A stretch of DNA of 64,000 bases, taken from positions 423 to 64,422 of the forward strand of contig CAYHCG010000008.1 in assembly GCA_964355135.1 (NCBI GenBank), given 5' to 3'. This stretch comes from Candidatus Woesearchaeota archaeon (GTDB taxonomy: Archaea; Nanobdellota; Nanobdellia; Pacearchaeales; GW2011-AR1). Below are positions 50,609-51,403 of this stretch, in pieces. The notes beneath the pieces are model-generated. The model saw only the letters and a list, made by a program, of their open reading frames with translations. It was not told where the DNA came from and searched no databases. Within the stretch, counting starts at the first letter, position 1. Each line of letters begins with the position of its first letter. Both the position numbers and the translations under genes were made by a program.

Positions 50609-51403
50609 TTATATCTCTCGAAGAGATAAAATTGTGTCTAAAGAAGCAATTTTCTTGAAATTTTCTGGAATTGAGAGAGTTATCTGCTTGTTGTTTTCTT
50701 TGATTTTCTCGACGGGAATTCCTTTTTTTATGAGCTTGAGAACATAGTCTCTAATCGATGATTGAGATAGAGAAGTTTTTTCCGCAAGAAGAGGATAATC
50801 CACTATATTACCCATATCCTGAAGAGAATAAATTAATGAAAAGATATTGATCTCCTGAGCAGTGAGTTTTTTAAATTTAGAACGAAGGTCTTTCTTTAAG
50901 TTGTCGAGGGAGTCTAATACCTGGGAAACAGCTTCTATTTGAGTGATTTTGTCAGCATTTTGAGGTGTATCTTGCTTGATATTGGTAGATAAGGGGCTAG
51001 AGGGAGCTATTGTGGAGGTTACTGGAGGCATTAGGGTGGTCGGACCGGGTATGTGGGGAGAGTTAAGGGAAGTGTGGAAAGAAGAAGGAGGGCTGTTTTC
51101 TGTGGTTTGTGCGAACCTTTGGATGTGTCTGTCTGTCTGTCTGTCTGTCTGTCTGTCTGTTGGAACCCCTTCGTTTCCTGTGGAAACCTGTAAATTTGGG
51201 GTTTTTACGCCTTGTAGAGGAAGGTTATGTGTCTGTCTGTCTGTTGGAGTTATGTGTCTGTCTGTCTGTTGGAGTGCTTTTAGTGTCTGATCTAAGGTTC
51301 GTTTAATTTCTTGCATCTCGGAATATAGTATGTTTAAGTGCTGCTGTAAGGCATAAATATCTTCTTTTACTTTTGAAAAAGATTCTTTTATTGGATCAGA
51401 CAT
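50609..51403 (-). CDS. coiled-coil + C-terminal winged-HTH protein containing a (TDRQ)n tract encoded by (GTCT)n repeats
   Basis: C-terminal LTAQEINIFSLIYSLQDMGNIVDYPLLAEKTSLSQSSIRDYVLKLIKKG wHTH. Internal PTDRQTDRQTDRHI. Confidence 0.45.
   Translation of the reverse strand: MSDPIKESFSKVKEDIYALQQHLNILYSEMQEIKRTLDQTLKALQQTDRHITPTDRQTHNLPLQGVKTPNLQVSTGNEGVPTDRQTDRQTDRHIQRFAQTTENSPPSSFHTSLNSPHIPGPTTLMPPVTSTIAPSSPLSTNIKQDTPQNADKITQIEAVSQVLDSLDNLKKDLRSKFKKLTAQEINIFSLIYSLQDMGNIVDYPLLAEKTSLSQSSIRDYVLKLIKKGIPVEKIKENNKQITLSIPENFKKIASLDTILSLREI
51125..51160. repeat. (GTCT)8-9 tetranucleotide microsatellite inside the wHTH gene
   Basis: gtgtctgtctgtctgtctgtctgtctgtctgtctgt. Two shorter (GTCT)3 arrays at 51229..51244 and 51254..51269 sit in a 25-bp direct repeat. 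Confidence 0.9.

Follow-up and report, generated by a model that had tools for sequence, protein, structure and literature searches.

Known origin-type sites and repeat loci

In E. coli, the datA locus titrates DnaA, and bacterial parS sites are found inside parB/spo0J. For the DPANN archaea, to our knowledge, nothing is experimentally known about replication origins or their control. Tetranucleotide contingency loci are known from Haemophilus influenzae and Neisseria, one example being the (GACA)n tract of lgtC (general reviews: PMC11868660, PMC6889271).

In other archaea, the ORB and mini-ORB elements of oriC1 are the binding sites of Orc1/Cdc6 (Robinson et al. 2004, as cited in PMC1868953); the ORB consensus is given as GTTCCAGTGGAAAC-AAA----GGGGG, and in Haloferax some ORBs are followed by GT-rich stretches (PMC1868953). 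Such sites may also lie within genes. In the Thermococcales, a cluster of ORBs and mini-ORBs is located inside the coding sequence of dp1, the small subunit of PolD; Cdc6/Orc1 binds this cluster in vivo, its organisation is conserved throughout the order, and looping or regulation has been proposed as its role (PMC1904270).

The repeat tract and its host gene

The window, i.e., the whole 64-kb stretch of DNA that was analysed, carries a tetranucleotide tract inside a protein-coding gene:

50609-51403, minus strand: host gene of 264 aa (from the ORF list), belonging to a large DPANN family without a name
51224-51273, minus strand: two perfect 25-bp units TCCAACAGACAGACAGACACATAAC, each CCAAC(AGAC)3ACAT
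51127-51158, minus strand: (AGAC)8 as read in the coding direction and (GTCT)8 as read on the plus strand, encoding TDRQTDRQTDR

TRF recovers TGTC x8.8 at 51126-51160, which equals a perfect (GTCT)8.75, and the 25-bp unit GTTATGTGTCTGTCTGTCTGTTGGA x2.1 at 51224-51275, both with 100% matches. The initial annotation had described a 36-nt (GTCT)8-9 tract in this gene, together with (GTCT)3 tracts in a duplicated 25-bp unit; the long tract is real and perfect but measures 35 nt (eight full AGAC units) and not 36, the 25-bp duplication is itself perfect, and the translations proposed for the repeats are present in the ORF as ...QQTDRHITPTDRQTH... and ...GVPTDRQTDRQTDRHI.... The two 25-bp units use two different reading frames (LQQTDRHIT / PTDRQTHN), and the loss of one of them, computed on the window ORF, would cause a frameshift. 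Searched with at most one mismatch, GTCTGTCTGTCT has eight occurrences in the window, all of them within this ORF, against an expectation of 0.18, and a count of eight was reached by 0/100 shuffles. A genome-wide dispersed repeat was rejected, given that the GTCT tract is confined to this gene within the window.

The host protein is predicted to have a long N-terminal helix (aa 4-47), a disordered linker (aa 49-147) and a helix followed by a MarR-like winged helix (aa 148-263). In the AF2 model, residues 148-263 form helices and strands with a pLDDT of 80-95, while residues 49-147 have a pLDDT below 50, and the repeat-encoded peptide is predicted to sit in this disordered linker. Foldseek places MarR-family regulators at the top of the matches to the winged helix (E about 6e-4, TM about 0.45 relative to the target), and the anatomy agrees with the earlier claim that the repeats lie upstream of a C-terminal winged-helix domain. 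The Pfam matches of the protein (HTH_36, HTH_24 and HTH_11) were each under the gathering cut-off, and the NCBIfam profile search returned no match. At E<=1e-3, the protein has 2401 homologues, named Pacearchaeota, Nanoarchaeota or Woesearchaeota; literature searches yielded no publication that deals with Pacearchaeota origins or with this gene family.

Conservation across the family

For comparison, 80 species-level orthologues with a median pairwise protein identity of 46% were fetched, which together with the window gene make 81 genes. The position of the tract is identical in all 81, and the consensus of the 80 orthologues here is TCCAcaGGAAAyNNNGGGGTTCCAAC(AGAC)4 CAAC (AGAC)3 ACAT (TCCAcaGGAAATgaaGGGGTTCCAACAGACAgACAgACAgAC.aACAGACAgAC). 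The perfect (AGAC)8 is the window's form of a family array of eight phased NRAC units, usually (AGAC)4 CAAC (AGAC)3, and the two 25-bp units are the counterpart of the family's upstream "QTDRQITPTD" tract. CCAAC, which begins both of these units, is also what usually interrupts the array of the orthologues.

Depending on the species, the array has between 1 and 13 units, with 7-9 phased units in 63/79 genes and a mode of eight, as in the window. Eight perfect units are found in five genes (the window and four orthologues), and the longest perfect run is of four units or fewer in 54/79; at units 4-5, most genes are interrupted in the same way by AAAC/CAAC, and identical 32-mers are common to different and distant species. 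All 81 genes are in frame, in a sample biased towards intact genes. The exact sequence of the array is not universal, since one sub-clade has CAAC/AAAC units in the place of AGAC (a PTNQ peptide) while keeping the period of four.

The conservation extends to synonymous sites, which are invariant or nearly so throughout the module (TCC and GTT 81/81, GGA 79/79, GGG 79/81, GAC 72/72), as are the array codons ACA, GAC, AGA and CAG across the family, and the T codons of the upstream tract are ACA in 60/62, 54/59 and 63/63 sequences. The top codon holds a fraction of 0.94 in the block, whereas in 81 other conserved columns its share is 0.60 (Mann-Whitney p=4.7e-8), and, given the same amino acid, the fraction of sequence pairs with the same codon is 0.91 versus 0.48 elsewhere. 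Codon bias was rejected as a cause because the same genes overall prefer GAT (53% of Asp codons) to GAC and CAA to CAG, and because the invariant residues of the winged helix use every synonymous codon, R218 using all six. The module is present in essentially every member of the family, with frozen synonymous sites in a gene that is otherwise saturated with synonymous change, and an assembly artefact was rejected, the module being found in at least 80 independent assemblies.

An ORB-like site next to the array

The first 20 nt of the conserved block match the archaeal origin recognition box, and the features of this part of the module are as follows:

51165-51187, minus strand: ORB-like site GTTTCCACAGGAAACGAAGGGGT, from a pattern search, encoding V-S-T-G-N-E-G-V
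51159-51163, minus strand: CCAAC junction from the G-string to the array (coding strand ...GGGGTT CCAAC AGAC...)
51107-51120, minus strand: DNA motif AAAGGTTCGCACAA, 40 nt after the ORB anchor (42 nt in other species)

The site at 51165-51187 consists of the dyad TTTCC-ACA-GGAAA, a 3-nt spacer and a G-string, and it matches the published ORB consensus (PMC1868953) as well as the ORB1-3 sequences of Pyrococcus (PMC1904270). GTTTCCACAGGAAACGAAGGGGT has both the mini-ORB dyad (TTCCA-N-GGAAA type) and the one-sided G-string by which an ORB is recognised. It is found in 78/81 orthologues with about 2 bits per position, and E, the sole variable codon of STGNxGV, falls on the ORB spacer. The site is a single copy in the window and does not flank an AT-rich element as part of an inverted pair, the surrounding GC content being 43-53%. 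Loci L083 and L092 have a second intragenic ORB, and the two G-strings there point inward across a 36-nt AGAC tract, a polarity opposite to that of oriC.

Further downstream, the motif at 51107-51120 encodes KFAQ or KSSYN, depending on the species. Its conserved form AARGTTCGYAYAA is retained in frame 0 at +40 (e.g., in L001, L005, L007, L011 and the window) and in frame 2 at +42 in L022, L043, L055, L066 and L080.

An overlapping ORF was also considered and rejected. The +1-frame ATG within the ORB (GGAAATGAAGG) is missing in the window and in 16/81 genes (AAC for AAT), the +1 frame meets a stop shortly past the tract in L001, and the plus-strand ORFs across the tract are a mere consequence of the stop-free GTCT repeats.

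The proposed replication origin and the gene neighbourhood

A predicted oriC of canonical layout (ORB, AT-rich region, ORB) is located beside the orc1/cdc6 and polD genes of the window:

56411-56440, minus strand: oriC ORB-L TCTCCACACGAAACCATGGGGGGCGGGGGT, with its mini-ORB end towards the AT-rich region
56441-56761: AT-rich putative duplex-unwinding element, GC 16-29% in 100-nt windows from 56500
56762-56790, plus strand: oriC ORB-R CTCCAGTGGAAATGCTGGTGTGGGTG, inverted relative to ORB-L
56917-58128, plus strand: orc1/cdc6 initiator gene (Pfam Cdc6_C, Cdc6_lid and AAA_22; TIGR02928 with 422 bits, the cut-off being 181)
58132-59676: PolD DP1, after orc1/cdc6
59673-63092: PolD DP2, after DP1

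AT-rich tandem repeats are found by TRF at 56494-56534, inside the putative unwinding element. In the GC skew, no switch is seen where the oriC is proposed, and the skew neither supports nor opposes an origin here.

The intragenic ORB and both oriC ORBs, which are 5.2 kb apart from it, have the same TCCA-N3-GAAAY-N3-G-string layout, and this layout is also present at the cdc6-adjacent origins of L081, L083, L092 and L093. The strict ORB pattern matches only the oriC ORBs and the host gene in the 64-kb window, and only the cdc6-adjacent intergenic region and the host gene in six 20-kb loci. Over 80 loci, it gives 82 matches in the gene versus 17 outside, most of the latter being inverted, origin-like pairs 1-2 kb upstream. 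The order DP2-DP1-Cdc6-oriC...Lhr-gene-paralogue is shared by the window and five of the six other long contigs, and in other genomes the host gene lies 1-7 kb from such an origin.

A probable accessory initiator-binding element

Most likely, the module is a stretch of DNA to which a protein binds, and its purpose is not that of an on/off switch. More specifically, the tract is one half of the window's copy of an ancient module, and this module probably acts as an accessory initiator-binding cis-element within a coding sequence, a reading to which we would give a rough probability of 0.58. The module comprises about 60 bp of the linker-coding part of the gene, is constrained at the level of nucleotides and is made up of the ORB-like site (TCCAcaGGAAAyNNNGGGGTT), immediately followed by CCAAC and about eight phased NRAC units. 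Orc1/Cdc6 is the candidate binder of the ORB part, as suggested by sequence resemblance and location only, and the tetranucleotide array may be an extended flank of the ORB or a partner site, possibly for the winged-helix product or its paralogue. As an accessory site at the origin, with the dp1 ORB cluster of the Thermococcales as its counterpart, the module could couple the expression of the gene to initiator occupancy, or titrate or organise the initiator. The TDRQ peptide would then simply be the translation that any frame of a stop-free tetranucleotide array yields, and the element would not exist for the sake of the slippage in its array, which would be a by-product.

Several observations count against this reading. 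The ORB is retained in L082 even though there is no cdc6 within 10 kb, the oriC ORBs are followed on the same strand by GT-rich and not AC-rich sequence, and disrupted alleles in natural populations fit a dispensable or switchable protein. The intragenic ORB also has no AT-rich unwinding region next to it and, where doubled, has the polarity opposite to that of oriC, the array sequence departs from AGAC in the PTNQ sub-clade, the GC skew lacks a switch at the proposed oriC, and a period-4 array of NRAC units is not known to function next to an ORB.

A broader arrangement may be proposed from the neighbouring gene:

49548-50180, plus strand: convergent paralogue of 210 aa (coiled coil, linker, winged helix), adjoining the host gene in 75/80 loci

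The linker of this paralogue has its own repeats that are conserved at the nucleotide level, with the palindrome AACAGCTGTT, and the 12-bp palindrome AAACAGCTGTTT has 198 matches in 467 kb versus about 7 expected, 184 of the 198 lying within the paralogue or just upstream. Tentatively, the linker-coding segments of both convergent genes might be dual-use DNA, in which disordered linkers coincide with conserved arrays of cis-sites (ORB plus eight-unit NRAC in one, AAACAGCTGTTT palindromes in the other) that would assemble an initiator-control or centromere-like nucleoprotein complex by oriC, the slippage of NRAC heritably uncoupling the protein from the site.

Alternative readings

The same arrays may also be read as operators of the genes that contain them, the ORB-like site and/or the NRAC array being bound by the gene's own MarR-like product or by the convergent paralogue, in autoregulation or as a centromere-like self-site of the kind that parS forms inside parB, instead of by Orc1/Cdc6. 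Nucleotide-level conserved repeats in the linker-coding regions of both paralogues, the concentration of AAACAGCTGTTT in the paralogue and its promoter, the AACAG half-site that the CCAACAG heading each AGAC tract has in common with this palindrome, and a coiled coil with a winged helix, plausibly a multimeric DNA binder, are all consistent with this. It is nevertheless rather unlikely, as the ORB part fits the oriC ORBs of the same genomes position by position, G-string spacing included, and the PTNQ sub-clade has an array without AACAG.

The initial annotation had read the tract as a candidate phase-variable switch with the classical design of contingency loci. In a switch of this kind, slipped-strand mispairing would reversibly toggle the full-length winged-helix protein, and the repeat would be kept for the sake of its mutability. 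The window allele has the form of such a switch, the perfect (AGAC)8 being an uninterrupted SSR inside an ORF with a unit length that is no multiple of three, and the computed products agree with the claim that a one-unit change frameshifts away the winged helix: changes of one or two units give truncated products of 110-126 aa without this domain, and a change of three units stays in frame. Slippage is also seen in nature, on 1 of about 16 contigs of one 90% cluster: the genes of L088 and L001 are 100% identical apart from the tract, where L088 is shorter by 20 nt (a 5-unit contraction), so that its gene is split into ORFs of 96 and 171 aa. The closest relatives differ in frame, P0003 having three units less than P0002, and the spread of unit counts across species and the in-frame repeat-copy polymorphisms elsewhere in the linker among strains point the same way.

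The wider comparison, however, makes a contingency switch unlikely and leaves the classical design largely unsupported. The L088 allele is the one slippage-type OFF allele among the 67 members of 20 strain-level clusters; of the three truncated members, only L088 is due to slippage, L090 having a nonsense mutation and L089 a 5' half replaced by rearrangement or in a chimeric scaffold. All species-level genes are in frame, and their tracts occupy the same position, keep a conserved length and are mostly interrupted and poorly mutable, with interruptions and whole 32-mers shared by distant species. Instead of a variable length or presence between normally evolving flanks, the codons of both the tract and its flank are invariant, and, as the synonymous freeze reaches into the non-repetitive ORB flank, slippage cannot account for it. 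The gene, moreover, encodes an origin-linked DNA-binding protein and not a surface, host-interaction or restriction-modification determinant. Given that its tract is uninterrupted, the window allele is plausibly among the most slippage-prone versions, with instability as a side effect; a JGI metagenome scan for the window strain returned distant relatives only (32-44% identity) and no close relative. A perfect intragenic microsatellite alone is no evidence of a contingency locus.

A constraint on nucleotides within a transcript would fit a function in the mRNA equally well, where the frozen nucleotides might form a hairpin, be targeted by a protein or sRNA, or signal recoding or pausing, and the UUUCC-ACA-GGAAA dyad is able to form a hairpin of 5-6 bp in the predicted fold. 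This is improbable, however, as the region folds no better than its shuffles (z = +0.34, with 130/200 shuffles at least as stable), the tract is unpaired and Rfam has no match there, on which grounds a structured RNA was rejected. An RNA element would also leave unexplained why the G-string is placed as in the oriC ORBs and why the proximity to the origin is conserved, and the inverted second copy in L083 and L092 is easier to reconcile with a site in DNA than with a motif in RNA.

Finally, a functional peptide STGNxGVPTDRQTDxQTDRH with an incidental DNA repeat, to which its conservation in the alignment lends some appeal (S74, G76, N77, G79, V80, D83 and R84 being invariant), is highly improbable and contradicted as a sole explanation, as the synonymous codons are invariant even where disfavoured (GAC, CAG, GGG, TCC) while other invariant residues use all codons, the neighbouring DNA motif is kept across two reading frames, the PTNQ sub-clade changes the peptide but keeps the period-4 array, and the segment is predicted to be disordered.

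Comparison with known systems

The preferred reading, an accessory initiator-binding element, supplies a concrete 60-bp initiator-type box with a tetranucleotide array, preserved base for base in the coding sequence of essentially every family member, and a clean natural example of a cis-element that overrides synonymous drift in a coding region.

The resemblance to datA and to parS within parB lies in cis sites for an origin-associated DNA-binding protein near the origin, inside a coding sequence in the parS case, but these systems are bacterial and involve unrelated proteins, and the likeness would be a functional analogy and not homology. With the contingency loci of Haemophilus and Neisseria, the tract shares its unit (GACA = AGAC), its location within an ORF, the one-unit frameshift and a gene-splitting contraction in a relative, whereas here the tract is short and mostly interrupted, its length and sequence are deeply conserved between frozen flanks, no ON/OFF mixture is seen among species and the gene is no surface or restriction-modification determinant.

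With the ORBs of oriC1, the intragenic site has in common the TCCA-N-GGAAA dyad with its G-string, the strong conservation across taxa and a spacing identical to that of the window's two inverted ORBs beside orc1/cdc6. The intragenic site differs in lying within a coding sequence 5.2 kb from oriC with no adjacent AT-rich unwinding element, in being followed by an AC-rich tetranucleotide array and not by GT-rich sequence, and in its opposite polarity where paired.

From the dp1 cluster of the Thermococcales, the module differs in its host gene, which encodes an unnamed coiled-coil/winged-helix protein, in its lineage (DPANN), in being a site predicted from sequence, and in having mostly one ORB, in some cases two, joined to a tetranucleotide array. 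In both cases, however, initiator-type boxes lie inside a gene that codes for a protein, at a distance of a few kb from oriC/cdc6, and the organisation is conserved across a clade at the level of an order.

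Repeat tracts in the target gene and its orthologues

All of the repeats lie in one ORF of the minus strand (50609-51403, 264 aa), in which Tandem Repeats Finder reported TGTC x8.8 at 51126-51160, with 100% matches, and a perfect 25-bp unit, GTTATGTGTCTGTCTGTCTGTTGGA, x2.1, at 51224-51275. Allowing up to one mismatch, the 64-kb window contains GTCTGTCTGTCT eight times, always within this gene (expected count 0.18; eight occurrences were reached in 0/100 shuffles of the window). Read on the coding strand, all three tracts follow the common design CCAAC(AGAC)nACAT, with n=3 twice, in the 25-bp units, whose reading frames differ between copies, and n=8 once. 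Given that (AGAC)n is stop-free in any frame of both strands, it can be housed in coding sequence, and it also accounts for the spurious plus-strand ORFs over the tract. Gain or loss of one or two units shortens the product to 110-126 aa; with three units, the frame is kept.

The initial annotation rightly placed these repeats upstream of a C-terminal winged helix-turn-helix, as Tandem Repeats Finder, the ORF, an AF2 model and Foldseek all indicate. In the model, the winged helix forms the C-terminal third (residues 148-263, pLDDT 80-95) and has MarR-family regulators as its top Foldseek matches (E ~6e-4), and every match of the protein to Pfam HTH families fell under its cut-off. Residues 49-147 have a pLDDT below 50, and the peptide from the conserved DNA block falls in this predicted disordered linker. 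At E<=1e-3, 2401 homologues of the protein were found, and those with names belong to Pacearchaeota, Nanoarchaeota, Woesearchaeota or "archaeon" MAGs. When the 17 closest were aligned, the tract-encoded peptide proved to be among the best conserved parts (consensus STGNxGVPTDRQTDQQTDRHI).

Directly upstream, after a 42-nt gap, lies a 90-aa ORF (51446-51718, minus strand) that probably shares a transcript with the target gene and has weak, sub-threshold, winged-helix-like Pfam matches (DUF7342 and EarA). A clear homologue occupies the same position in the orthologous locus L069 (2660-2932); in the loci L081, L082, L093 and L094, the same place is taken by unannotated ORFs of 94-108 aa. In L094 alone, a LAGLIDADG homing-endonuclease-like ORF (8393-9466) is inserted between the small upstream gene and Lhr.

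The repeat counts of relatives were examined in 80 species-level loci from GTDB genomes, the best 80 of 298 tblastn matches, a selection that skews the sample to intact genes. At the DNA level, CCAACAGACAGACAGACAGACCAACAGACAGACAGACACAT or a close variant was read in almost all of these 80 loci. When phased NNAC units were counted downstream of the GGGGTTCCAAC anchor, 63 of the 79 genes counted had 7-9 units, with a mode of 8, so the orthologues do carry the tract, and eight units is the standard length of the family, as in the window. The only departure of the window from the usual array is unit 5, which is AGAC and elsewhere CAAC; eight perfect units are also found in four other species. Identical interrupted 32-mers (e.g., AGAC AGAC AGAC AAAC CAAC AGAC AGAC AGAC) are common to many distant species, and the longest perfect run has at most four units in 54/79 species. 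In one sub-clade, CAAC/AAAC units replace AGAC, giving the peptide PTNQPTNQQTNQ, and the period of four and the length are retained. Judged from these sequences, the tract is ancient rather than lineage-specific.

Conservation at the nucleotide level

In a codon alignment of 81 genes (the window gene and its 80 orthologues), with a median pairwise protein identity of 46%, the invariant residues of the N-terminal helix and the winged helix use all of their synonymous codons (six for R218, four for S216 and six for L212). From S74 to D91, on the other hand, the codons are fixed.

Fixed codons of the S74-D91 block in the 81-gene codon alignment, in order of listing
TCC, 81/81
GGA, 79/79
GGG, 79/81
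GTT, 81/81
CCA, 72/74
ACA (first), 72/73
GAC (first), 72/72
AGA, 62/63
CAG, 67/73
ACA (second), 79/79
GAC (second), 60/60

Within the block, the top-codon fraction reaches 0.94, compared with 0.60 for 81 conserved columns elsewhere (Mann-Whitney p=4.7e-8), and, given the same amino acid, sequence pairs use the same codon in 91% of cases within the block and 48% outside it; the overall preference in these 81 genes is for GAT over GAC and for CAA over CAG. As the freeze extends to the non-repetitive flank TCCACNGGAAAYNNNGGGGTT, it cannot be explained by slippage-driven homogenisation. The motif AARGTTCGYAYAA (51107-51120, minus strand), 40-42 nt past the ORB anchor, is kept in a subset of species (L001, L022, L043 and others) and is translated as KFAQ in some and as KSSYN in others, and is thus conserved as DNA across two reading frames. 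The conservation of the block therefore resides in its nucleotides.

An ORB-like flank and a putative origin

The frozen flank resembles an origin recognition box (ORB), the archaeal Orc1/Cdc6-type site, for which the published euryarchaeal consensus is GTTCCAGTGGAAAC-AAA----GGGGG (PMC1868953) and the reverse complement of Pyrococcus ORB1 is TTCCAGTGGAAATGAAACTCTGGGGGG (PMC1904270). The relevant features of the window are as follows.

51187 to 51165, coding (minus) strand of the target gene: ORB-like flank GTTTCCACAGGAAACGAAGGGGT
56440 to 56411, minus strand: ORB of the putative oriC, TCTCCACACGAAACCATGGGGGGCGGGGGT
between the two oriC ORBs, about 320 bp: AT-rich stretch (16-29% GC) with AT-rich tandem repeats
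56762-56790, plus strand: ORB of the putative oriC, CTCCAGTGGAAATGCTGGTGTGGGTG, inverted relative to the minus-strand one
56917-58128: Orc1/Cdc6 initiator gene (Pfam Cdc6_C, Cdc6_lid and AAA; TIGR02928 at 422 bits)

The genes of PolD DP1 and DP2 directly follow orc1/cdc6, and the region immediately upstream (56411-56790) has the layout of a textbook origin, a putative canonical archaeal oriC, with no switch of GC skew there. Both oriC ORBs and the intragenic site have the layout TCCA-N3-GAAA[CT]-N3-G-string, and the strict pattern has three matches in the 64-kb window, which are precisely these sites. In six 20-kb orthologue loci, it matches only in the cdc6-adjacent intergenic region and in the gene, and the order DP2-DP1-Cdc6-oriC-PRC-...-Lhr-gene-paralogue is retained in five of the six. 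The 80 shorter loci (best 80 of 298) have 82 matches in the gene and 17 outside, most of the latter being inverted pairs ~300 bp apart, 1-2 kb upstream of the gene. Such pairs lie close upstream in L069 (914-1213), L058, L073, L044, L047, L061, L063 and L080; in L069, the DNA between the two ORBs is extremely AT-rich and contains trinucleotide repeats and a masked N run, and the PRC-barrel gene again comes next. The target-gene orthologue is even closer to the origin-like structure there. This pair appears to be the origin, drawn nearer to the gene because Lhr and the metallophosphatase gene are missing.

The ORB-like site is present in 78/81 genes and is still found in homologues of 32-36% identity, and the only variable codon of STGNxGV is exactly the three-base spacer of the ORB. 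In L083 and L092 (both 10214-10292), a second, inverted intragenic ORB lies across the AGAC tract, with the G-strings facing inward, a polarity opposite to that of the oriC pair. ORB-like sequences were also seen within the Lhr helicase gene (CTCCAGTGGAAAAGAGGGGGC in L083, at 6139, minus strand, and a weaker match with three mismatches in the window, at 52981-53000, plus strand); their positions are non-orthologous, and they may be due to chance.

Proposed nature of the element and alternatives

The best-supported reading, on sequence grounds, is that the tract and its flank are a DNA-level cis-element embedded in coding sequence. The element would join an array of ~8 NRAC units to an initiator-type box and would belong to the wider origin region. 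For the protein that binds the array and the effect of its binding, we infer only candidates, in that the array may extend the contact of the initiator, serve as the site for a partner, act as a transcriptional roadblock coupling the target gene to initiator occupancy, or titrate the initiator.

The sites might instead be bound by the winged-helix proteins themselves, a self-operator for which there is some support in the convergent paralogue (49548-50180, plus strand; coiled coil, linker and winged helix), present in 75/80 loci (best 80 of 298). Its linker is built of CAGCTGTTCAAA-type repeats with frozen, nearly invariant codons, so both genes hold arrays of cis-sites in their own linker-coding DNA. 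The orthologous loci, 467 kb in all, contain the 12-bp palindrome AAACAGCTGTTT 198 times where ~7 copies would be expected, and 184 copies are inside or just upstream of the paralogue; the palindrome clusters within this gene and its promoter in every genome examined, and 7/9 of its near-matches in the window cluster at 47978-49865. One of the two winged-helix proteins probably uses this array as its operator.

A phase-variable contingency switch by slippage in the tract, as proposed in the initial annotation, is unlikely, even if repeat-mediated change does occur. Over the full length of the gene, the ENA assembly L088 differs from L001 only in lacking CCAACAGACAGACAGACAGA (five units), a loss that splits the gene into ORFs of 96 and 171 aa; in this cluster, ~15 contigs encode the full-length protein and one the split protein. 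The protein P0003 is three units shorter than its homologue P0002, the copy number of other linker repeats differs between strains without a change of frame (VRQITPT x1 vs x3; THIP x2 vs x1), and the frames downstream of the tract differ between species, all of which marks the linker as mutationally lively; with its eight uninterrupted units, the window allele is expected to be one of those more prone to slippage. What is missing, however, is the mark of a contingency locus under selection: the length, sequence and interruptions of the tract are conserved, perfect runs do not exceed four units in 54/79 species, and 81/81 species-level genes are intact, in a sample (best 80 of 298 tblastn matches) that favours intact genes. 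Only one slippage-type OFF allele was found among 67 members of 20 strain-level clusters; the remaining two truncated members were not due to slippage. L090 (JGI Ga0233421_10031235, ~nt 95-100) carries a nonsense mutation, a TAA that, relative to P0008, stands three codons ahead of the ORB. In L089 (1166-1262), an unrelated gene and a terminator-like hairpin take the place of the whole 5' half of the gene, ORB and tract included, either through a rearrangement or because the scaffold is chimeric. The JGI metagenome collection contained no close relative of the window strain.

An RNA element is more improbable still, with folding at z=+0.34, no match in Rfam, and the ORB layout and origin linkage left unexplained.

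Comparison with known systems

No report on the element or on Pacearchaeota origins was found in the searchable literature. Read as a cis-element, it would be a clear case of the freezing of synonymous sites and, with the putative oriC, would give the study of replication control in DPANN its first concrete cis-elements open to testing.

Several features argue against a simple ORB: the intragenic site has no adjoining AT-rich element, its polarity is reversed where it is paired, L082 keeps it without a cdc6 within 10 kb, and GC skew is uninformative. Furthermore, the sequence after the G-string is AC-rich and not GT-rich. Some haloarchaeal ORBs are followed by GT-rich stretches (PMC1868953). 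In Sulfolobus, ucm/UBP is an accessory origin motif with its own binding protein (PMC12141716). A direct precedent for initiator-type boxes within coding sequence is the dp1 gene of Thermococcales, which contains clusters of ORBs and mini-ORBs to which Cdc6/Orc1 binds in vivo and which are conserved throughout the order (PMC1904270). The element may be seen as a variant of two known kinds, ORBs and intragenic ORB clusters, and what is new would be its occurrence in DPANN, its host gene, the conserved tetranucleotide array to which it is fused, and the base-for-base conservation within coding sequence.
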